From NCBI GenBank assembly GCA_934149275.1, contig CAKPEG010000004.1, positions 1,806 through 65,805 on the forward strand: a stretch of DNA of 64,000 bases, given 5' to 3'. Origin of the DNA: an uncultured Clostridia bacterium. Its GTDB lineage: Bacteria; Bacillota; Clostridia; TANB77; CAG-508. Below are positions 1-14,779 of the stretch, piece by piece. Below the pieces are notes generated by a model. That model did no database searches. It was not told where the DNA came from and saw only the letters and a program-made list of their open reading frames with translations. Each line of letters starts with the position of its first letter. Position 1 is the stretch's first letter. A program made the translations under genes and the position numbers.

Positions 1-61
1 TTGGTAGAGCGCTCGGCTGTTAACCGATAGGTCGTTGGTTCGAGTCCAACAAGAGGAGCCA
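1..61 (+). tRNA. tRNA-Asn (anticodon GTT), 5' part cut by window edge
   Basis: D-arm remnant TTGGTAGAGC, anticodon loop CTGTTAA, T-arm GGTTCGAGTCCAAC, and an acceptor 3' strand ending in encoded CCA at 59-61. Confidence 0.85.
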
Positions 62-3076: not shown

Positions 3077-4786
3077 ATGGAAGATAAAAGAATGAATTTA
3101 TATAAAGCTACAGAGTTTGAAACGATAAGAGATGTAATAAGAAATGCAGTAAAAAAATATCCTGAAAATAATGCATTTATATTAAAAAATAAAAAAGATA
3201 AAGATGTAGAATATAAAAAAATAACATATAAGCAATTTGGTGAAGATATAGATAGCTTAGGAACAGAACTTGTTAATCTAGGCCTAAAAGGAAAAAGAAT
3301 TGCAATAATAGGAAAAAACAGATATGAATGGATAGTTTCATATTTGGCAACAGTAAATGGCATAGGAATAGTAGTTCCACTTGATAAAGGGTTACCAGAA
3401 GCGGAAGTTGAATCTTCTTTGATAAGAAGTAAAACAGATTGTATAATTTTTGAAGAATCATATACAGAAATGATACAAAATATTAAAAATGCAGGAAATA
3501 CAAATATAAAAGAATATATTTGTATGGATAAGCAAGAAAATTTCACATCACTAGAAGAACTTATCGAAAAAGGAAATAAATTATTAAAAGAAGGTAATAG
3601 AGAATTTCTAGATAGCCCAATAAATCCAACAGAAATGAGTATTATACTTTTCACATCTGGAACAACATCAATGTCAAAGGCGGTAATGTTATCACATAAA
3701 AACATTGCATCAAATATATATGCAATGACTAAATGTGAAGATTTGAGAAGTACAGATACAAATATCGCGTTTCTACCATTTCACCACACATTTGGATGCA
3801 CTGGAATATTAATGTTCTTGAGCTTAGGTGCAACAAACGTATTTTGTGACGGACTAAGACATATCCAAAAGAATTTAGTCGAATATGAGGTATCAACATT
3901 TGTTTGTGTACCATTATTGATTGAATCAATTTATAAAAAAATATGGCAAGAGATTGAAAAGACAAATCAAACTAAAAAAGTTAAATTTGGAATAGCTTTA
4001 AGTAAAATGTTATTAAAAATAGGAATAGATATAAGACCAAAATTATTCAAACCAATAACAAGCAAACTAGGTGGAAAAATAAGAATGATAATAAGTGGAG
4101 CATCAGGAATTGATCCTCAAGTAGCAGATGGATTTAGAGATTTTGGAATTTATGTTGCACAAGGATATGGACTAACAGAAACATCACCTGTTCTTGCAGC
4201 TGAAAACGTTAAGTATTACAAGAAAGGTTCTACTGGATTGCCAATGCCGGGTGTGGAAATAAAGATAGACAATCCAAATGAACAAGGAATTGGTGAAATA
4301 AAAGCCAAAGGTCCAAACGTAATGCTTGGATATTATGAAAATGAAGAAGAAACAAATAAAGTATTAAAAGACGGATGGTTTTATACAGGCGATTTAGGTT
4401 ATATGGATAAGGAAGGATTTTTATACATAACAGGAAGAAAGAAAAATGTTATTGTTTTGAAAAATGGAAAGAATGTTTATCCAGAAGAATTAGAAGTTCT
4501 AATAGGAAATTTACCATATGTTAAAGAAAATATGGTTTTCGGAAAAGAAAAAGACGATGATTTAGTCGTATCAGCTAAAATTGTGTATAACCAAGATTAT
4601 ATGAAAGACAATTATCCAGACAAGACACAAGAAGATATAGAAAAAATAATTTGGGAAGATATTAAAGAAATAAACAAAACAATGCCAAATTACAAACATA
4701 TAAAAAATATAATTGTAACAGATCAAGAGATGATAAAAACAACAACTGCAAAAATAAAAAGATACGAAGAGATTAAAAAATTATAG
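3077..4786 (+). CDS. AMP-dependent long-chain fatty-acid--CoA ligase family protein
   Basis: AMP-binding motif FTSGTTSMSKAV, plus GYGLTETS and TGDLGYMDKEGFLYITGRKK. Start at MEDKR, after the GGTGGAGG RBS. Confidence 0.85.
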   Translation: MEDKRMNLYKATEFETIRDVIRNAVKKYPENNAFILKNKKDKDVEYKKITYKQFGEDIDSLGTELVNLGLKGKRIAIIGKNRYEWIVSYLATVNGIGIVVPLDKGLPEAEVESSLIRSKTDCIIFEESYTEMIQNIKNAGNTNIKEYICMDKQENFTSLEELIEKGNKLLKEGNREFLDSPINPTEMSIILFTSGTTSMSKAVMLSHKNIASNIYAMTKCEDLRSTDTNIAFLPFHHTFGCTGILMFLSLGATNVFCDGLRHIQKNLVEYEVSTFVCVPLLIESIYKKIWQEIEKTNQTKKVKFGIALSKMLLKIGIDIRPKLFKPITSKLGGKIRMIISGASGIDPQVADGFRDFGIYVAQGYGLTETSPVLAAENVKYYKKGSTGLPMPGVEIKIDNPNEQGIGEIKAKGPNVMLGYYENEEETNKVLKDGWFYTGDLGYMDKEGFLYITGRKKNVIVLKNGKNVYPEELEVLIGNLPYVKENMVFGKEKDDDLVVSAKIVYNQDYMKDNYPDKTQEDIEKIIWEDIKEINKTMPNYKHIKNIIVTDQEMIKTTTAKIKRYEEIKKL

Positions 4787-4861
4787 ATTAAAAAAAATAA
4801 TGTGATATAATATTTATGTCATGTTATTTTTTTGACTTAAAATAAGAAAAAGGAGGACTAT

Positions 4862-7015
4862 ATGTCAGAAAATATAGTTAATTCAAGCAGAATAATTGTT
4901 GTCAAAAGAGACGGAAAAAAAGTTGATTTTAATAAAGCCAAAATAGCTGTAGCAATAAAAAAAGGATTTGATAGCATAAAACTAGAAAATGGCGAAAATA
5001 AATATACAGAAAAAGACATAAATATAGTTTTAAATAAAGTACTTACTAAAATTGAAAAAGAAAATCCTGAAAAAATAAAAATTGAAGAAATTCAAGATAT
5101 GATAGAATTAGCATTAAAAGAAGAAAAATATGAAGATGTATATGAATCTTTTTCAACATATAGAGAAAGAAGAAATCAATCAAGAAAATTATTTTTTGAT
5201 GAGAAAAAGCAACATAAATTTTTAAAAGCAATAGAGAACCTTGGAATGAACCATACAATGCATGATGAAGAAGTAAATGAAACATGTACAGCCATGGGAA
5301 CAATGCTTAGCTATGGTCAAACAATTTCAAACGAATTTTCGAAAGCATATTTGATAAAAAGAAAATTTGTTGATTTACATGAAAGCGGAGAATTATATAT
5401 CCATGATTTAGAATATTATCCAATGGGAACATCAACTACATGCCATATTGATTTAGACAAATTATTTAAAGATGGTTTCTCAACAGGCTATGGATTTTTA
5501 AGAGAGCCTAATAATATAATGACATATTCTATATTGTCAGCAATAGCAATTCAGGCAAATCAAAATGATCAACATGGAGGTCAAAGCATACCTCAACTTG
5601 ATTATTATTTCGCACCTGGGATAGTAAAAACTTTTAAAAAAGAATTTAAGCAAACTGTTTATGATTTCTTAGATTATTCAGATTTCGGAATATTTGCAGC
5701 AGTAAATGGGATGGAAAGAGAAATAGAAAAAATAACTACAATAAAGTTTGACATAGGAATATTTGATGCATATTGTAGAGAATCTGAACAATTAAAAAGA
5801 TTTTTTAGAATTGCATATAATAAAGCTTTGAAAAAAACTGAAAACATTGTATATCAAGCAATGGAAGCGTTTATACATAACCTAAATACGATGCGCTCAA
5901 GAGCAGGAGCAGTTTTGCCAAATTCAACTGTAAATTTAGGAACAGATACAACACCAGAAGGAAGAATGATTACAAAAAATTATTTATTAGCATTAGAAAG
6001 AGGAATTGGTAAAGAAGAAAAGCCTTTGTACCCAATAACAATTTTTAAAGTAAAAGAAGGTATTAATTATAATAAAAATGATCCAAATTATGATTTGCTT
6101 AAATTAGCATGTAAGGTGGATTCAGAAAAACAATTAATAGAATTTTCTTTCTTGGATGCAGAGTTTAATAAAAAAGGTTATATTGCCTCAGACAAAGATA
6201 GCGAAATTGCATATATGGGAAATTCAATAAGAGTATATGAAAATGTAGTAGATAAATCAAAGCCAACATCAATTGGTAGAGGAAATTTATCAACAGTAAC
6301 AATTAATTTACCACGACTAGGATTGAGATTTGGAAAAATTAGAAATGAAACTACAGATTTGAAAGCTTTTTTTGAAGAGTTAGATAATAAAATGGAAAAG
6401 GCAAAAGAAATTTTATTAGACAGATATGAATTTCAAACAGACAAAAGAGTATACAATTTTCCATTCCTAGTTGGTCAAGGCAACTGGCTAGATAGTGAAA
6501 AATTAAAACCAGCAGATAGATTAAGAAGAATAAATAAACATGGAACTTTGTCTATTGGATTTGTTGGCTTAGCAGAATGTTTAACAGCTCTTGAAGGAAA
6601 ACATCATGGAGAATCACAAGGCTCTCAAGAGATAGGATTAGAAATAGTAAGACATATGAGAGAAAAAGTGGATGAATTTACAGAAAAAAATAATTTAAAT
6701 TTTGTACTATATGAAACACATGAAAAACAAGTAATAGAATACTTTACGAGTATAGATAAATCTATTTACGGTAAATATAAAGGGATTACGGATAAAGAAG
6801 AATATACTATAGGATTTGCATTACCAGAAGATTATAATATAGGAACGGAAGATCAAATAGCTCTGGAATCAGAATATCATAAATTAACTAATGGCGGTCA
6901 TATGACTACAGTTGAGCTTAGTAGCAAAAATCAAGGAAAATTCGAAAGCTTTGAAAAAGTTGTAAAACAGATGAAAGATATGGGAATAGGTTTAGGAAAA
7001 ATTATTATAAAGTAA
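4862..7015 (+). CDS. NrdD-like (class III ribonucleotide reductase-like) protein with ATP-cone, lacking key catalytic elements
   Basis: N-terminal ATP-cone (IIVVKRDGKKVDFNKAKIAVAI). NrdD-like blocks LYIHDLEYY, NLNTMRSRAGA..NLGTD and GRGNLSTVTINLPRL. The finger-loop position reads MGNSIRV rather than MGC. The protein ends right after IGLGKIIIK with no Cys-rich or Gly-radical tail. Confidence 0.7.
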   Translation: MSENIVNSSRIIVVKRDGKKVDFNKAKIAVAIKKGFDSIKLENGENKYTEKDINIVLNKVLTKIEKENPEKIKIEEIQDMIELALKEEKYEDVYESFSTYRERRNQSRKLFFDEKKQHKFLKAIENLGMNHTMHDEEVNETCTAMGTMLSYGQTISNEFSKAYLIKRKFVDLHESGELYIHDLEYYPMGTSTTCHIDLDKLFKDGFSTGYGFLREPNNIMTYSILSAIAIQANQNDQHGGQSIPQLDYYFAPGIVKTFKKEFKQTVYDFLDYSDFGIFAAVNGMEREIEKITTIKFDIGIFDAYCRESEQLKRFFRIAYNKALKKTENIVYQAMEAFIHNLNTMRSRAGAVLPNSTVNLGTDTTPEGRMITKNYLLALERGIGKEEKPLYPITIFKVKEGINYNKNDPNYDLLKLACKVDSEKQLIEFSFLDAEFNKKGYIASDKDSEIAYMGNSIRVYENVVDKSKPTSIGRGNLSTVTINLPRLGLRFGKIRNETTDLKAFFEELDNKMEKAKEILLDRYEFQTDKRVYNFPFLVGQGNWLDSEKLKPADRLRRINKHGTLSIGFVGLAECLTALEGKHHGESQGSQEIGLEIVRHMREKVDEFTEKNNLNFVLYETHEKQVIEYFTSIDKSIYGKYKGITDKEEYTIGFALPEDYNIGTEDQIALESEYHKLTNGGHMTTVELSSKNQGKFESFEKVVKQMKDMGIGLGKIIIK

Positions 7016-7043
7016 GATAAGTGCTTTTGAAAATCATTGAAAA

Positions 7044-7083
7044 AATATCCTCAATACAGTTAAAAATATTGAGGATATTTTTT
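7044..7083 (+). terminator. intrinsic terminator
   Basis: Stem AATATCCTCAATA / TATTGAGGATATT followed by a T-run. Confidence 0.8.
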
Positions 7084-7204: not shown

Positions 7205-8101
7205 TCAGATTTTATTAGCATTTACTAATCTTTTTATATCATCAGGCAAATTAGAATGAATAAGCATTTTCTCTTTATTAATTGGGTGAACAAATGACAC
7301 TTCATAAGCATGCAATGCTTGTCTAGAAATCAAAGGACTTTGCAAGCCATACAAAGAATCACCAACAATAGGATGACCAATATATTTAGAATGAACTCTT
7401 AATTGATGTGTACGTCCAGTTTCTAATGTATATTCTACCAAAGTCATATTATTAAATCTTTCTAAAACTTTAAAATGACTAATAGCTAAATCTCCATCCT
7501 CACGAATTTCACGTTCAATAATGCTATCATTTTTTCTAGCAATTGGAGCAGAAATTGTACCATAAGCTTCGTCAAGAATACCTGAAAGAACAGCAAGATA
7601 TTTTTTCTTAAAAACATTTTGTTTCATTTGTTTTACTAAACATTCCTGAATATACTCATTTTTAGCAAAAATAACAATTCCAGAAGTGTCTGTATCCAAA
7701 CGGTTTACAGGTCTAATTTTCTTGTACAAATCTATCTTATCAAAGTGATATTTAACCGCATTTGAAAGTGAATCTTCATAATGTAAAATTGAAGGATGTA
7801 CAGGTAAGTTTGAAGGTTTATCAACAATTAATAAAAAATCATCTTCATATAATATGTTTAATTTAATATTAGAATTAGGCACTATATTTGAAGAATCTTC
7901 TTTAGAATTTTCAATTATAGTTAAAATATCATTAACTTGAATTTTATAATTTATAAATACAGGCACGTCATTTATATAAATTGAATTTGAACTTTTTAAT
8001 TTCAATATAAATCTATCAGACATATTAAATTTATTTTTCAAAATCTGTTTAATTGATTCATCAGAATTTGTAACAACATATGTTAATTTCATAAGCACCA
8101 C
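7205..8101 (-). CDS. RluA-family 23S rRNA pseudouridine synthase (RluD-like)
   Basis: S4-like N-terminus and catalytic motif NRLDTDTSGIVIFAK, plus GRTHQLRVH. Start is ambiguous: GTG at 8101 or ATG at 8092. Confidence 0.85.
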   Translation of the reverse strand: MVLMKLTYVVTNSDESIKQILKNKFNMSDRFILKLKSSNSIYINDVPVFINYKIQVNDILTIIENSKEDSSNIVPNSNIKLNILYEDDFLLIVDKPSNLPVHPSILHYEDSLSNAVKYHFDKIDLYKKIRPVNRLDTDTSGIVIFAKNEYIQECLVKQMKQNVFKKKYLAVLSGILDEAYGTISAPIARKNDSIIEREIREDGDLAISHFKVLERFNNMTLVEYTLETGRTHQLRVHSKYIGHPIVGDSLYGLQSPLISRQALHAYEVSFVHPINKEKMLIHSNLPDDIKRLVNANKI

Positions 8102-8204: not shown

Positions 8205-9203
8205 ATGAATTTCATAGAAGAAATGAAAAAGAAGGCAAGAACCGATATAAAGACAATTGTACTTCCAGAAGCGGAAGACAAAAGAGTTCTTGAAGCAGCA
8301 AGCAAAGTTGAAAAAGAGGCATTTGCTAAAATAATATTAATAGGAAATATTGAAAAAACAAAAGAATTAGCAAAAGAAAATAATATAGACATTACAAACA
8401 TTGAAATTATTGATCCAGAAAAATCAGAAAAATATGCTGAATATGTACAAGCTTTTTATGAATTAAGAAAAGCAAAAGGAATTACAGAAGAAGATGCAAA
8501 AAAAATAATTAAAAATCCGGTATACTTTGGAATGATGATGGTAAAAAGAGAAGATGCTGACGGACTTGTGTCAGGAGCAGCTCATTCAACATCAGATACT
8601 TTAAGACCAGCACTTCAAATTCTAAAAACAGCACCAGGAACAAAACTTGTTTCAGCGTTTTTCTTAATGAACGTTCCAAATTGCGAATATGGTGAAAATG
8701 GAATTTTTGTATTTGCAGATAGCGGATTAAATGAAAATCCAGATAGTGATAAGTTAGCAGAAATTGCAGCATCATCTGCAAAAAGTTTTGAACAATTAGT
8801 TGGGAAAGAAGCAAAAGTAGGAATGCTTTCATATTCAACATATGGAAGTGCAAAATCCGAATTAACAGAAAAAGTAATCGAAGCTACAAAGTTACTTAAA
8901 GAAAGATATCCCAACATTAAATCTGATGGAGAATTGCAATTAGATGCAGCAATAATTCCTGAAATTGCAAAAAGCAAAGCACCAGAAAGTGAAGTGGCAG
9001 GACAATGTAATACATTAGTATTTCCCAATTTAGATGCTGGAAATATAGGATACAAATTAGTACAACGTTTAGCAAAAGCAGAAGCTTATGGACCTTTATG
9101 TCAAGGAATTGCAAAACCAGTAAACGATTTATCTCGTGGTTGCTCAAGTGATGATATAGTTGGAGTAGTTGCAATAACTGCAGTACAAGGACAAACAAAA
9201 TAA
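8205..9203 (+). CDS. pta: phosphate acetyltransferase
   Basis: 332 aa. Typical Pta sequence (IVLPEAEDKRVLEAA, GLVSGAAHSTSDTLRPALQI, NDLSRGCS). Confidence 0.92.
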   Translation: MNFIEEMKKKARTDIKTIVLPEAEDKRVLEAASKVEKEAFAKIILIGNIEKTKELAKENNIDITNIEIIDPEKSEKYAEYVQAFYELRKAKGITEEDAKKIIKNPVYFGMMMVKREDADGLVSGAAHSTSDTLRPALQILKTAPGTKLVSAFFLMNVPNCEYGENGIFVFADSGLNENPDSDKLAEIAASSAKSFEQLVGKEAKVGMLSYSTYGSAKSELTEKVIEATKLLKERYPNIKSDGELQLDAAIIPEIAKSKAPESEVAGQCNTLVFPNLDAGNIGYKLVQRLAKAEAYGPLCQGIAKPVNDLSRGCSSDDIVGVVAITAVQGQTK

Positions 9204-9257
9204 AAAGTAGGAGCTGAAAAATGCTCACACAAAGATAAAAAGAAAGGAAAGAATAAA

Positions 9258-10460
9258 ATGAAAATATTAGTAGTAAACTGTGGAAGCTCATCATTAAAAT
9301 ATCAATTAATAGATATGGAAAATGAAAAACTTTTAGCAAAAGGAAATTTTGAAAGAATAGGTGAAAAAGAATCTTTTGTTACACATAAAGTAAACGGAGA
9401 AAAATATGTAGTAAAAGAACCTGTAAAAGACCATGAAGAAGCTTTGAAAATAGTATTACAACAATTAGTACACAAAGATTATGGTGTAATAAAAGATTTA
9501 TCAGAAATAAATGCAGTAGGACACAGATTAGTACATGGTGGAGAAATATTTAACCAATCAGTTTTAATAACAGAAGATGTTATTAAGAAATATGAAAGTT
9601 GTTCAAGCTTAGCACCATTGCACAATCCAGCAACAATATTAGGAATCAGAGCTTGTCAAAAAGAAATGCCAGGAGTTCCAATGTGTGGAGTTTTTGATAC
9701 AGCCTTCCATCAAACAATGCCGAAAGAAAATTACTTATATCCAATTCCATATGAATACTATGAAAAATATGGAATAAGAAAATATGGATTCCATGGAACA
9801 TCACATCAATTTGTTTCAAAAAGAGCTGCAGAAATCATAGACAAAAAAGATGGAGATTTAAAAATAGTTACATGTCACTTAGGACAAGGTGCATCAATTT
9901 GTGCAATAAAAAACGGAGAATCACAAGACACATCAATGGGATTATCACCATTAGGTGGAATAGCGATGGTAACAAGATCTGGAGACTTAGATCCATCAGT
10001 AGTTACAGAAATAATGGAAAGAGAAAACTTATCAGCAAAAGAAGTTAACACAATATTAAATAAAAAATCAGGATTATATGGAATAACAGGATTAGATCCA
10101 GATTTTAGAGAAATAGAGTTAGCATCTTATAAAGATGACCAACCAAAAGCACAAGTTGCAATCGAACTATTCACACAAACAATAGCACAATTCATAGCAA
10201 AATATGCAGTAACATTAAGAGGAATAGATGCAATAATCTTCACAGGGGGAATTGGAGAAAACCAAATTAATATAAGAAAGAAAATCTGTGAAGACTTAGA
10301 GTGGATGGGAGTTAAACTTGATTTAGAAAAGAACAACGTAAGAAGTGTAGAAACAAAAATATCAAGCGAAGATTCAAAAGTTGAAGTTTATATTATCCCA
10401 ACAGACGAAGAAATGGTAATAGCAAGAGATACAAAGAGAATTGTAGAAAATAATAAATAA
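9258..10460 (+). CDS. ackA: acetate kinase, paralog 1
   Basis: Motifs NCGSSSLKYQL, GHRLVHGG, YGFHGTSH, TRSGDLDP, PTDEE. Confidence 0.92.
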   Translation: MKILVVNCGSSSLKYQLIDMENEKLLAKGNFERIGEKESFVTHKVNGEKYVVKEPVKDHEEALKIVLQQLVHKDYGVIKDLSEINAVGHRLVHGGEIFNQSVLITEDVIKKYESCSSLAPLHNPATILGIRACQKEMPGVPMCGVFDTAFHQTMPKENYLYPIPYEYYEKYGIRKYGFHGTSHQFVSKRAAEIIDKKDGDLKIVTCHLGQGASICAIKNGESQDTSMGLSPLGGIAMVTRSGDLDPSVVTEIMERENLSAKEVNTILNKKSGLYGITGLDPDFREIELASYKDDQPKAQVAIELFTQTIAQFIAKYAVTLRGIDAIIFTGGIGENQINIRKKICEDLEWMGVKLDLEKNNVRSVETKISSEDSKVEVYIIPTDEEMVIARDTKRIVENNK

Positions 10461-10467
10461 TTGAAAA

Positions 10468-10502
10468 AAACTAGAAGTTTTTGTAGAACTTCTAGTTTTT
10501 TT
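10468..10502 (+). terminator. intrinsic terminator after ackA paralog 1
   Basis: Stem AAACTAGAAGTT / AACTTCTAGTTT followed by a T-run. Confidence 0.8.
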
Positions 10503-10738
10503 GCCTCAAAAGGTTGATTTTTAGCCTAAAACCTTGATATAATAAAAATACGTCTTTATAATTTTACATTATAAAAATAAATCGTATTCGTACATTGATA
10601 TCGCGAATGAAATTTAATTATAATTTTAGCAGGACTAAATATAATATAAATTCTAAGTGCTAATCAAGTATAGCTAAGTAGCATACTTGCCTAATCGGCA
10701 TGCTACCTAAAAAAGAAAATATTAAGGGGGAAGCTAAT

Positions 10739-11923
10739 ATGAAAGTTTTAGTTTTAAACTGTGGAAGTTCATCTTTGAAATGTCAATTGATCGATATGGA
10801 GAAAAACGAAAGAATTATGAAAGGACACTATGACAGAATAGGAGGTGCAAGATCTTCACTACGATTTAATGTAAGAGGAGAAAAAACAGTAATTGAACAT
10901 CCTGCAAGAGATTTTGAAGAAGCGATAGGAGAAATCTTAAACTTATTAGTAAGTGATGAATACAAAGTTATAAAAAGCTTTGATGAAATAGGAGCAGTAG
11001 GACACAGAATAGTACACGGAGGAGAAAGATTTAAAGAATCAGTAGTAATAAATGATGATGTAATAGATGCTATAAAAGAGTGCATAACATTAGCACCATT
11101 ACATAACCCAGCAGGTTTGGCAGGAATATATGCATGTCAGAAACTATTACCAAACGTACCAATGGTAGCAGTATTCGACACATCATTCCATCAAACAATA
11201 CCAGAAAAAGCATTTATATATCAATTGCCATATAAATATTATGAAGACTATAAAATAAGAAAATATGGATTCCACGGAATTTCACACAGATATGTTGCAA
11301 ACAGAATATCAGAAATTCTTGGAAGAAAAGATTTAAAAATAATAAATTGCCATCTTGGACAAGGTGCATCATTATGCGCAATTAAAGATGGAAAATCAAT
11401 AGACACAACAATGGGACTAACGCCACTAGCAGGCGTTCCAATGGGAACAAGATGTGGAGACGTTGACCCATCAATCATACCAACAGTAATGAAATTATAT
11501 GATATTCAACCAGACGAAATGTTAAGAATAATGAACAAAGAATCAGGAGCTTGGGGAGTATCAGGAGTTTCAACAGACTTTAGAGATATAGAAAGAACAG
11601 CAGCAGACGGAGATGAAAGATCAATTTTAGCACTAGAAAGTAGAGCATACATAATTGCACAATATATTGCAAAATTTATTGTAACTCTAAACGGGGTTGA
11701 TGTAATAACATTTGCAGGTGGAATTGGAGAAAATGGATTCGAAGAAAGAGAAAGAATTTGTGGATACTTAGAATGCTTCGGAATAAAATTAGATAAAGAA
11801 AGAAATCTAACAAGAGGAGAAGAATATAAAATATCAAGCGATGATTCAAAAGTTGATATTTACATAGTACCTACAAATGAAGAAATTGTAATAGCAGAAG
11901 ATGCATACAATTTAACAAAATAA
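10739..11923 (+). CDS. ackA: acetate kinase, paralog 2
   Basis: Motifs NCGSSSLKCQL, GHRIVHGG, YGFHGISH, TRCGDVDP, PTNEE. Start at the MKVLVLN ATG, preceded by an AAGGGGG RBS. Confidence 0.9.
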   Translation: MKVLVLNCGSSSLKCQLIDMEKNERIMKGHYDRIGGARSSLRFNVRGEKTVIEHPARDFEEAIGEILNLLVSDEYKVIKSFDEIGAVGHRIVHGGERFKESVVINDDVIDAIKECITLAPLHNPAGLAGIYACQKLLPNVPMVAVFDTSFHQTIPEKAFIYQLPYKYYEDYKIRKYGFHGISHRYVANRISEILGRKDLKIINCHLGQGASLCAIKDGKSIDTTMGLTPLAGVPMGTRCGDVDPSIIPTVMKLYDIQPDEMLRIMNKESGAWGVSGVSTDFRDIERTAADGDERSILALESRAYIIAQYIAKFIVTLNGVDVITFAGGIGENGFEERERICGYLECFGIKLDKERNLTRGEEYKISSDDSKVDIYIVPTNEEIVIAEDAYNLTK

Positions 11924-11933
11924 AAATAAATCA

Positions 11934-11966
11934 TACTGGTGATAAAAGGTCGCCAGTATTTTTTTA
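11934..11966 (+). terminator. intrinsic terminator after ackA paralog 2
   Basis: Stem ATACTGGTG / CGCCAGTAT followed by a T-run. Confidence 0.75.
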
Positions 11967-12004
11967 TAAAAATTTCGGTACAAAGCTGATTATACAAAAA
12001 ACTA

Positions 12005-12033
12005 TTGATATAAAAAAATATTAATGTTAAAAT
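12005..12033 (+). promoter_or_regulatory. sigma-A type promoter upstream of ackA paralog 3
   Basis: TTGATA, 17 nt spacer, TAAAAT, with a TG extension. Confidence 0.45.
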
Positions 12034-12072
12034 TTGAACAGAAAAATTTAAAAGAAGGAAGTTAAATTAAGT

Positions 12073-13266
12073 ATGAAAATTTTAGTATTAAATTGCGGAA
12101 GCTCTTCTTTAAAATTCCAATTGATAAACATGGAAAACAACGAAAGATTAGCTAAAGGAAATTTTGAGAGAATAGGTGGAATGAAAACCACATTAAAATT
12201 AAACGTAGGAGGCAAGAAAGAAGAATTAGTTCACATTGCCAGAGACTACGATGAAGCAATAAGTTTTGTATTAGAAGTTTTATTAAAACCAGAATATAAC
12301 ATAATAAAATCATTAGACGAAATAACAGCAGTAGGACACAGAATAGTACACGGAGGAGAAATGTTCAGCAAATCCGTACTAATAAATGATGACGTAATAA
12401 AAGAAATTGAAAAATGCATAGACTTAGCGCCATTACACAATCCAGCAGGAGTAGCAGGAATCAAAGCTGCCAAAAATGCATTACCAAACGTACCAATGGT
12501 AGCAGTATTTGACACAGCATTCCATCAAACAATGCCAGCAAAAGCATATATATATCAAATACCTTACAGATATTACACAAGCTACAAAATAAGAAAATAC
12601 GGATTCCATGGAGCAAGCCATAAATATGTAGCTGAAAGAGTTTCACAAATATATGGAAGAACAGAAGACTTAAAAATAATAAACTGTCACCTAGGACAAG
12701 GTGCATCAATATGTGCAATTAAAGATGGAAAATCAGTAGACACATCAATGGGATTAACACCACTAGCAGGAATACCAATGGCAACAAGATGTGGCGATAT
12801 AGATCCAGCAATAATTCCTTATGTAATGAAAAAAGATAATTTACAACCTGAAGATATAGAAGATATATTAAATAAACAATCAGGAGCATGGGGAGTATCA
12901 GGAGTTTCATCAGATTACAGAGATATAGAAGACGGATATAATATGAAAGATCCAAGATCAATATTAGCACTTGAAAGCCAAGCATACAAAATAGCACAGT
13001 ACATCGGGCAATACATTATCTCACTTGGAGGCTTAGACGTTCTAACATTTGCAGGAGGCGTTGGAGAAAACGGAATAGAAACAAGAGAACGAGTATGTAA
13101 ATACCTAGAACCATTTGGAATTAAGATAGACACAGAATTAAACAACATTAAAGGAAAAGAAAGAAAAATAAGCACAGAAGACTCAAAAGTAGATATCTAC
13201 ATAATACCAACAAATGAAGAATTAATGATTGCAAAAGAAACAGAAGAACTAGTTAAAAATTCATAG
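12073..13266 (+). CDS. ackA: acetate kinase, paralog 3
   Basis: Motifs NCGSSSLKFQL, GHRIVHGG, YGFHGASH, TRCGDIDP, PTNEE. Confidence 0.9.
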   Translation: MKILVLNCGSSSLKFQLINMENNERLAKGNFERIGGMKTTLKLNVGGKKEELVHIARDYDEAISFVLEVLLKPEYNIIKSLDEITAVGHRIVHGGEMFSKSVLINDDVIKEIEKCIDLAPLHNPAGVAGIKAAKNALPNVPMVAVFDTAFHQTMPAKAYIYQIPYRYYTSYKIRKYGFHGASHKYVAERVSQIYGRTEDLKIINCHLGQGASICAIKDGKSVDTSMGLTPLAGIPMATRCGDIDPAIIPYVMKKDNLQPEDIEDILNKQSGAWGVSGVSSDYRDIEDGYNMKDPRSILALESQAYKIAQYIGQYIISLGGLDVLTFAGGVGENGIETRERVCKYLEPFGIKIDTELNNIKGKERKISTEDSKVDIYIIPTNEELMIAKETEELVKNS

Positions 13267-13543: not shown

Positions 13544-14779
13544 ATGTTTCAAAAAGAAACATTGTCATCAAATGCTTCAGAAAAGAATAAAACGTGTATA
13601 TCATCACGGACACAAAAATATAATTTGAAATATCCGAGAGTTAAACGTGGAGAATTATATATTTGTGATTTTGGAGAACCTTATGGAAGTGAGCAAGGCT
13701 ATAAAAGGTTTGCTTTAATAGTGCAAAATAATAGAGGAAATCGAGTATCACCTACTACAATAGTTGTAGCGTGTACCACTAAAAAGAAAACCAATTTACC
13801 AGTTCACTATCAGTTCAATCTTTCCCCAAGCATAATGAAAGACTACAACCAAAAACGAATAGGAGAAGAAGTCGATGGAAATACCATATTAGCAGAGCAA
13901 ATAAAGACAGTAGACAAAAAAAGATTACGTAAATTTCTTGGAACAATGACAGATGAATTTATGGATGAAGTACAGAAAGTTATAGATATATCGCTAGATT
14001 TGAAAAGAGATACAGTAAAGTCAGTACAGGATTTAAGTATCATACAGATTCAGCTACTCGCAAAAGCTAATATAGAAAAACTTTTAGAAATTTCTCGGAC
14101 TATAGAGCCAGACGGGATTAAAATAAAGCGGATAATTGAATTATTTGGCTTTGATTTAGAATCAGAGGGGGCGCAATATTTAGTTAAAGCAATTTGCTTA
14201 GCTACCAAAGCAGACTATTCTGATCTAGAAAATTTATGTGAAGAAATTTCTAAAGAGAAGCACACTTTATCCCAAGAGAAAATGAAAGCAATAATTGTAA
14301 CTACAATAAAAGAAAAATTCAATTTTGAAACTTCTGTAGCAATTGAGTTCATTAGATTGATAAGTATACTTTTAGTTAAAGAACCAATTCCAGAGATTAA
14401 GGAAATTGAGTCACTGGAAAATAGCAAAGGAAAAATCGAAAATCTTTTGTGGAAATACTTAAAAAAAGATTTAGAAAAAATAGATTATTCTATGACGGTT
14501 GAGGAGAACATAGACTACTTCTTAGATAGTATTGGTATGTCTACAGATGAAATAATAATGCAATCATTTGTTATTGCTTGTAATACAAAAAGAATAACCT
14601 ATGCGAAGATTATCAATCAGCTTAAAGAAATGTATCCTGAAAAAATGAGTACAGAACTTAGAAAAACTTTGAGAGATAATTTTAAAAAATGGTTAGAAAA
14701 GAATCCAGAGTTAGCGACGCAGTGCAGACAAATTTCAATTATGAATTTACTTAAACTCTTTGCAAAAATGTTTGCATAA
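13544..14779 (+). CDS. MazF/PemK-fold endoribonuclease toxin domain fused to a ~260-aa helical C-terminal region of unknown function
   Basis: Residues ~30-160 match the MazF/EndoA pattern (RGELYICDFGEPYGSEQGYKRFALIVQNNRGNRVSPTTIVVACTT ... ILAEQIKTVDKKRL ... DEFMDEVQKVIDISLDL). A strong AAGGAGGAG RBS is present. The C-terminal part has two helical repeats. Confidence 0.7.
   Translation: MFQKETLSSNASEKNKTCISSRTQKYNLKYPRVKRGELYICDFGEPYGSEQGYKRFALIVQNNRGNRVSPTTIVVACTTKKKTNLPVHYQFNLSPSIMKDYNQKRIGEEVDGNTILAEQIKTVDKKRLRKFLGTMTDEFMDEVQKVIDISLDLKRDTVKSVQDLSIIQIQLLAKANIEKLLEISRTIEPDGIKIKRIIELFGFDLESEGAQYLVKAICLATKADYSDLENLCEEISKEKHTLSQEKMKAIIVTTIKEKFNFETSVAIEFIRLISILLVKEPIPEIKEIESLENSKGKIENLLWKYLKKDLEKIDYSMTVEENIDYFLDSIGMSTDEIIMQSFVIACNTKRITYAKIINQLKEMYPEKMSTELRKTLRDNFKKWLEKNPELATQCRQISIMNLLKLFAKMFA

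Follow-up and report, generated by a model that had tools for sequence, protein, structure and literature searches.

A predicted radical-dead NrdD paralog, kept intact by selection concentrated on its ATP-cone and linker, in an uncultured Clostridia bacterium

Class III ribonucleotide reductase (RNR) has been studied in depth, and its regulation is thought to rest on the enzyme's own ATP-cone and, at the gene level, on the repressor NrdR. Non-catalytic homologs are known from other RNRs: yeast Rnr4 is an inactive R2 partner, and betaherpesvirus R1 homologs, such as M45 and UL45, have lost catalytic residues and taken on other roles. None of Rnr4, M45 and UL45 is known to derive from a glycyl-radical class III enzyme. 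Here we describe a gene within a 64,000-nucleotide stretch of contig CAKPEG010000004.1 (the whole stretch hereafter being the window) from an uncultured Clostridia bacterium, assembly GCA_934149275.1, whose 717-residue product is a paralog of the class III reductase NrdD that is predicted to have lost radical chemistry. We refer to such copies as dead, and to those with a full set of catalytic motifs as live. Like Rnr4 and M45/UL45, the window protein has lost catalytic residues yet is kept by selection, although the RNR class, the organisms and the partners are different.

The best match amongst solved structures is the NrdD of Prevotella copri (PcNrdD; PDB 8P23 and 8P27; phmmer E 4e-118), which is an active reductase of the formate type and has C171, C416 and G711. 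In PcNrdD, the last barrel strand ends and the glycyl-radical domain (GRD) starts at residues 671-676, density is absent beyond residue 676 in the dATP-inhibited state, a role has been described for the NxN flap, and the nucleotide-contacting residues of the ATP-cone are K7, R8, Y83, R87 and R91 (PMC11226230). We generated an AlphaFold2 model of the window protein, which is confident except at the flap, loop 2 and the finger loop (predicted local distance difference test score, 84; predicted template-modelling score, 0.77). Compared by Foldseek with the PcNrdD core chains in which the GRD is disordered, the model gave template-modelling scores of 0.90-0.92 with root-mean-square deviations of 3.2-3.6 Å. 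The modelling thus shows a protein predicted to fold as NrdD, with an ATP-cone and a 10-stranded barrel. We then examined the catalytic motifs using an 82-sequence alignment together with an alignment to 8P23, in which EIATMGCRTRVFED aligns with EIAYMGNSIRVYEN. The coding sequence and the elements of its product lie in the window as follows:

4862..7015, + strand: coding sequence of the predicted radical-dead NrdD paralog (P0001), 717 residues, ATG start and TAA stop
4895..5176, + strand: ATP-cone, residues 12-105 (Pfam PF03477, E 9e-17, 61.8 bits)
5177..5245, + strand: linker, residues 106-128, containing RKLFFDEKKQHKFLKAIENL, almost invariant amongst dead copies
5246..5299, + strand: degenerate remnant of the NxN flap, residues 129-146 (from the alignment)
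5276..7000, + strand: NrdD alpha/beta-barrel core, residues 139-713 (Pfam NRDD PF13597, E 1.9e-127)
5396..5398, + strand: Y179, replacing the first His of the triphosphate-binding HxHD (from the alignment)
5438..5443, + strand: T193-C194, with T193 at the site of the second catalytic Cys (PcNrdD C171, T4 C79)
6221..6223, + strand: N454 (codon AAT), replacing the thiyl-radical Cys (PcNrdD C416, T4 C290) at the tip of the finger loop
6710..6745, + strand: residues 617-628, YETHEKQVIEYF, in place of the live triphosphate loop (I/L)ATPAEGLSGRF
7013..7015, + strand: TAA stop, four residues past GIGLG (from the alignment)

An earlier note on this DNA, made from the sequence alone, had proposed that the thiyl-radical Cys at the finger-loop tip is changed to Asn, and a proper alignment does place N454 at this position, the loop reading EIATMGCRTRV in 8P23 and EIAYMGNSIRV in the window protein. 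The same note took M-G-C to be the canonical form of this loop, which holds for PcNrdD but not for E. coli-type enzymes, which carry M-C-C. At the second catalytic site, the Cys that is kept, C194, aligns with the adjacent non-catalytic T4 C80. The elements that bind substrate have fared no better. The HxHD motif reads YIHD, with residue 179 being Y or F in 30/30 non-redundant dead copies; the live consensus of the NxN flap, KRENANxDGD, is replaced and carries a 5-residue deletion; and the triphosphate loop is substituted as listed above. These correspond in PcNrdD to residues 157-160 (HxHD), 114-116 (flap) and 577-581 (triphosphate loop). In the 82-sequence alignment, the conserved His of the GHG motif is also replaced by Tyr, and loop 2 is altered. 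The proposal that the core barrel motifs are kept is only partly true, as it does not apply to Y179, T193, the flap or the triphosphate loop.

The proposed absence of the entire C-terminal glycyl-radical/Zn domain was likewise borne out. The alignment to 8P23 ends at chain residue 677, the boundary between barrel and GRD, so that the end of the protein coincides exactly with a natural domain border, at the point where PcNrdD density ends in the dATP-inhibited state (residue 676; PMC11226230). Live relatives run on past this stop position with AINHPVDRDPVCG...CPGCGR...RRITGY, which comprises the Zn site and the glycyl-radical loop, whereas the 717-residue protein has no CxxC pairs and no RxxGY motif after the barrel, and its PF13597 match covers profile positions 4-503 of 562 only. 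A truncation caused by an assembly or frameshift artefact was ruled out, as the same stop position is found in ~30 assemblies. The features that are kept include the ATP-cone, the linker FFDEKKQHKF, the GRGNLS strand and, in the window's subgroup, the specificity-site helix QAMEAFIHNLNT. From the motifs that are lost, the protein is predicted to be unable to generate or use a radical, and hence to reduce ribonucleotides, and has probably also ceased to bind substrate nucleoside triphosphate (NTP).

Live NrdDs of the PRK07111 type (~785 residues; examples from Clostridia metagenome-assembled genomes are L022, L018 and P0075) are 58-61% identical to the window protein over residues 1-714 and have the same ATP-cone, linker, helical insert and barrel. 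It is within this group that the dead clade arises, with L022 and L023 as its neighbours. These live enzymes have KRENANxDGD, IHIHD, TTTCCQ, YMGCRTRV, ATPAEGLSGRF, the Zn site and RRITGY, all of which the window protein has lost, and their genes are followed by nrdG, which the window gene lacks.

Dead copies are also distinct from a set of two-piece class III RNRs (L050 and L075), which are 51-55% identical to the window protein and whose large polypeptide is also without a glycyl-radical loop. The two-piece RNRs keep every catalytic motif and the Zn ribbon, with the radical peptide and the activase encoded adjacently, whereas the window protein has none of these; by their motif content, they are working enzymes made in two pieces and are not dead. 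Their loci comprise a ~760-residue NrdD ending just past the Zn ribbon, a ~60-residue open reading frame (ORF) in another frame (RRITGY/RRVTGY) and nrdG, and were identified at L050:5986-8492 and L075:5830-8425, as well as in L039, L041, L051, L053, L056-L061, L065 and L067-L085. Because the frame offset differs between L050 and L075, the two-piece form is not a conserved programmed frameshift. We found no paper in the literature that describes a two-piece class III RNR.

The genome (1.63 Mb assembly, 94% complete, 28% GC) carries a complete nrdD on contig C7, with MGC, two CxxC pairs and RITGY, which is P. copri-like and 35% identical to the window protein, and the genome's only NrdG (169 bits) is encoded directly after it. 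We found neither a class I nor a class II RNR in this genome, which leaves nrdD-nrdG on C7 as the only RNR; the gene content shows a genome predicted to make its deoxyribonucleoside triphosphates (dNTPs) with a separate, complete NrdD-NrdG. The earlier note had remarked that no nrdG adjoins the dead NrdD gene, and indeed neither nrdG nor any other radical-SAM gene lies within +/-5 kb of it. The note had also raised the prospect of a glycyl-radical domain encoded elsewhere. Searches of the genome with the split-type GRD peptide and with PF01228 found no orphan glycyl-radical peptide, such a domain being carried only by pyruvate formate-lyase (PFL) and by the live NrdD. NrdR was not found in the genome.

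Next, we asked how selection acts on the gene, which the note had taken for a maintained pseudo-enzyme, allowing that it might prove sporadic and decaying in relatives. Ratios of nonsynonymous to synonymous substitution (dN/dS, or omega) were calculated pairwise by the NG86 (Nei-Gojobori) method for close pairs from independent assemblies. Amongst dead copies, 14 close pairs gave dN/dS values of 0.025-0.11 at dS 0.17-0.96, with the window gene at 0.08 against both L007 and L008, and two more distant pairs gave 0.14-0.16. Live relatives gave 0.023-0.067 in close pairs, with values of up to 0.11 amongst split or more distant forms. An unbroken reading frame was seen in ~30 independent assemblies, at identities as low as ~54%, and the stop position is identical in all dead copies. 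Selection keeps the dead NrdD intact, and the gene is neither sporadic nor decaying, which supports the note's maintained pseudo-enzyme well.

This selection is concentrated on the ATP-cone and linker, as seen from the regional values of omega:

ATP-cone and linker: omega 0.048 in dead copies, 0.077 in live copies
Residues 344-490: omega 0.112 in dead copies, 0.049 in live copies
Residues 611-717: omega 0.127 in dead copies, 0.035 in live copies

The ATP-cone and linker form the lowest-omega region in dead copies, while the former active-site segments are relaxed 2-4 fold. Column entropies agree with the regional omega: the mean for the linker is 0.20 in dead versus 0.84 in live copies, and that for the flap is 1.78 versus 0.67, such that the profile of constraint is inverted relative to live copies. 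The nucleotide-contacting residues of the PcNrdD ATP-cone correspond to K15, R16, Y100, R104 and R108 of the window protein, and these are invariant in 52/52 aligned sequences. At the finger loop, position 454 and the next two vary amongst dead copies (N, S, T, I, L, Y).

We then surveyed 121 genomes from 50 genera of the same GTDB family. An intact short form was identified in 23 of these genomes and 9 of the genera, mostly as judged by open-frame length and coverage, and a full-profile NrdD is also present in 23/23 genomes with the short form; in genus g29, both the short form and its own parent type are present. Class III RNR is found in all but two of the 121 genomes. NrdR is missing from 120 of them, with or without a dead copy (only G040 has a real match), which leaves no contrast by which an anticorrelation between NrdR and the dead copy could be seen.

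A homolog search returned a block of 700-718-residue proteins, from 100% to 63% identity, all of which end in ...GIGxGKxxIK and none of which has the Cys; below this block came the 785-residue live enzymes at 60-61% identity. Alongside group A, to which the window protein belongs, species genomes hold a second, more divergent subgroup, group B, with 53-60% identity and the same truncation point, whose finger loops vary freely (MGN, MGS, MGT, LGY, TGI, FGL and MNC). When 1.84 billion representatives were scanned by profile-free HMMER, 3596 matched, and amongst 65 representatives of 600-850 residues ~35 have neither MGC nor the flap, and neither the TPAEG loop nor the GRD. In a quick maximum-likelihood tree with long branches, the window protein grouped with 32 other dead sequences, and groups A and B together with 24 of these ~35 representatives formed one clade (SH-aLRT 98, a Shimodaira-Hasegawa-like approximate likelihood ratio test) that is sister to the live L022/L023. 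Trees built from fewer sequences also recovered the monophyly of A and B, with weak support. A single large dead clade is therefore likely, with long-branch attraction being possible in a quick tree of this kind. At least three further dead clades lie amongst live enzymes elsewhere in the same quick tree, where they have independent origins.

Divergent members of the dead clade from Bacilli metagenome-assembled genomes (MAGs) and metagenomes (P0273, P0129 and P0187) are encoded head-to-head with a live nrdD-nrdG(-dut), ~360 bp apart, in which the live enzyme is of the E. coli type. NrdR was not found in the genome holding P0273. We found no P0137-like proteins amongst 300 Clostridia or 300 Bacilli species representatives, and a metagenome scan for them was also empty. 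Separately from the dead copies, many NrdD representatives of 900-1450 residues (within P0126-P0201) match in two stretches with a break at 453/454-456, exactly where the finger-loop Cys lies, as would be expected of inteins inserted at the catalytic Cys.

The surroundings of the gene differ between the two groups. Group A loci share the order acyl-CoA-ligase-like gene, dead NrdD gene, convergent rluA-family gene, pta and 2-3 copies of ackA, with extra genes between the ligase and dead NrdD in some relatives. In group B, the dead NrdD gene invariably has spo0A on one side and a DUF4116 gene on the other, followed by genes for DUF1256 (YyaC-like), M23 and M50 protease proteins. Amongst loci L026-L064, a 175-residue DUF4116 repeat protein is always encoded 3' of dead NrdD (L047:8148-8675, for example); the gap between the two is 3 nt in L047, and in some loci they are separated by a small ORF. 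A partnership between dead NrdD and the DUF4116 protein in group B is possible.

The signals flanking the gene in the window are:

4803..4811, + strand: extended -10 element TGATATAAT (TG-A-TATAAT), a putative promoter by consensus match only
4851..4856, + strand: ribosome-binding site AGGAGG, 5 nt 5' of the ATG
7040..7083, no strand assigned: hairpin with an 18-bp stem between an A-run and a T-run, a predicted bidirectional intrinsic terminator

The -10 element falls inside a 75-nt gap that separates the dead NrdD gene from the preceding acyl-CoA-ligase-like gene (stop at 4784-4786). In relatives L009-L016, a TTGACA-17-TATAAT consensus promoter occupies the matching position, with a hairpin just before it, and because these relatives carry their own promoter before the gene, the dead NrdD gene looks monocistronic, forming its own transcription unit. 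The full 717-residue frame and the ribosome-binding site agree with the note's description of an intact gene with a good translation signal, as does the hairpin with the terminator it had placed after the gene; this terminator is common to the dead NrdD gene and the convergent RluA-family pseudouridine synthase gene (7205-8101, minus strand). The Rfam scan matched only a tRNA at window positions 1-58, and no riboswitch or other RNA element, and PADLOC returned no match for dead NrdD or two of its upstream neighbours. The upstream regions of the dead NrdD gene and of the live nrdD have no common k-mer of >=13 nt, the shorter common words being A-runs, which ruled out a shared operator; NrdR boxes are moot, as NrdR is absent from the genome.

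Other features of the window include pta followed by three tandem acetate-kinase paralogs of 400, 407 and 397 residues (8205-13266), of which relatives have 2-3 copies; a 411-residue ORF (13544-14779) with a PemK/MazF toxin domain at residues 34-150 only, which is unusually long for the MazF family; a 375-residue Mbeg1-like protein (577-1704; PF11187); and the tRNA gene at 1-58, which is cut by the window start.

What might such a protein do? On balance, we lean towards a protein that binds ATP/dATP without catalysis and acts as an accessory to, or sensor of, dNTP supply, the link to dNTP supply being suggested because distant relatives are linked to live nrdDG. In this scheme, the maintained function would be centred on the ATP-cone and linker. 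The ATP-cone would still bind ATP/dATP, and the helix at the dimer interface (the specificity site) may contribute too. The likely route of action would be nucleotide-dependent association with other proteins and not the binding of DNA, for which the protein has no domain, with the live NrdD, NrdG or something else as candidate targets. A role as a sensor or regulator would fit the pattern of constraint, in which the ATP-cone is the most constrained part.

The nearest parallel for an ATP-cone outside a working reductase is NrdR (TIGR00244), and the proposed logic is alike, namely sensing of the ATP/dATP ratio for dNTP supply. NrdR, however, is ~150 residues long and binds DNA via an N-terminal Zn ribbon, whereas the window protein is without a DNA-binding domain and keeps the whole barrel; searched against the NCBIfam families, it gave no TIGR00244 match, and it has no Zn ribbon.

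Several observations weigh against a sensor or accessory role. The window's gene and its subgroup are not linked to nrdDG, their neighbours being housekeeping genes, and within one genus the live NrdD may resemble either that of P. copri or that of E. coli, two subtypes that differ greatly. From the lack of linkage here and the differing subtype of the live partner, a tightly co-evolved heterodimer is disfavoured, and we rated an obligate heterodimer with the live NrdD as less likely. Two relatives, G007 (C19:7465-9291) and G008 (C60:26-2144), seem to hold broken copies, so the gene can be lost; their internal stops or split frames may be genuine pseudogenisation or contig-end assembly problems. 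Finally, no other RNR was found in G003, a rabbit-gut MAG with a dead copy that is probably incomplete.

With less confidence, we put forward a wider and tentative proposal: dead NrdDs may be widespread ATP/dATP-sensing regulatory subunits of anaerobic ribonucleotide reduction in anaerobes with small genomes and no NrdR, where they would act on NrdD/NrdG activity or in the cell's response to its dNTP status, and may have evolved repeatedly by the killing of a redundant copy.

Of the alternatives to a nucleotide sensor, the one that survives best, though we consider it unlikely, is a structural or moonlighting role that does not depend on nucleotides, such as that of a cell-cycle or sporulation scaffold, in which the ATP-cone is kept for folding or oligomerisation only. 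The constant position of the group B gene beside spo0A and the DUF4116 gene would suit such a role, as would the lack of RNR neighbours around the window's gene. Against this, the invariant ATP-cone residues are exactly the nucleotide-contacting ones and distant members of the clade adjoin live nrdDG, while the group B synteny may only reflect close kinship, the neighbourhood in group A being different.

We give slightly less credence again to a neofunctionalised enzyme or ligand binder, in which the emptied barrel, no longer plugged by the GRD, would serve a new non-radical chemistry or bind a small molecule. Purifying selection does still act on the whole barrel (omega <=0.13 in every segment), and some substitutions are fixed across dead copies, including H to Y/F at 179, E656, T682 and K627. 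The flap, loop 2, finger loop and triphosphate loop are nonetheless the most variable parts of dead copies and differ between groups A and B, and because these former active-site elements are the most variable, a new conserved catalytic site is not expected.

It is far less probable that the gene is a functionless relic of an ancestral nrdD, decaying slowly after a second nrdDG was gained. Such a relic would account for the other complete NrdD that is always present alongside, for a long stem branch (0.43) with rates raised after catalysis was lost, and for the two relatives with apparently broken copies. It is largely refuted by the low dN/dS and the frame kept intact across independent assemblies, and is also at odds with the identical stop position, with a divergence to ~54% identity reached without loss of frame, and with the gene's own consensus promoter.

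Least probable of all is a genuine reductase whose missing part is supplied in trans by a separate glycyl-radical peptide: two-piece enzymes do exist at the related loci L050 and L075, but there MGC, the Zn ribbon, the NxN flap and TPAEG are all present and nrdG comes next, none of which applies to the window protein, no orphan GRD peptide was found in the 94%-complete genome, and because both catalytic cysteines are lost the idea is refuted for practical purposes.

Full-text literature searches, and term searches in papers on RNR evolution, found no description of a dead or GRD-less NrdD, so that what we report appears to be a large family of dead NrdD copies for which no published description was found. 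The 717-residue protein scores 379 bits against the broader NCBIfam model TIGR02487, above the curated cut-off of 326, and automatic pipelines will therefore call it a reductase; against PRK07111 it scores 710 bits, where the cut-off is 764. The dead relative P0273 is already named 'anaerobic ribonucleoside-triphosphate reductase' at NCBI. Dead copies have likely been counted as working reductases, with the class III RNR repertoires of MAGs being overcounted as a result. Collectively, a conserved copy without radical chemistry, in which selection on the ATP-cone has tightened, suggests that gut and rumen anaerobes have an additional component in their dNTP homeostasis, and would give bacteria a clear case of a pseudoenzyme that descends from a radical enzyme.

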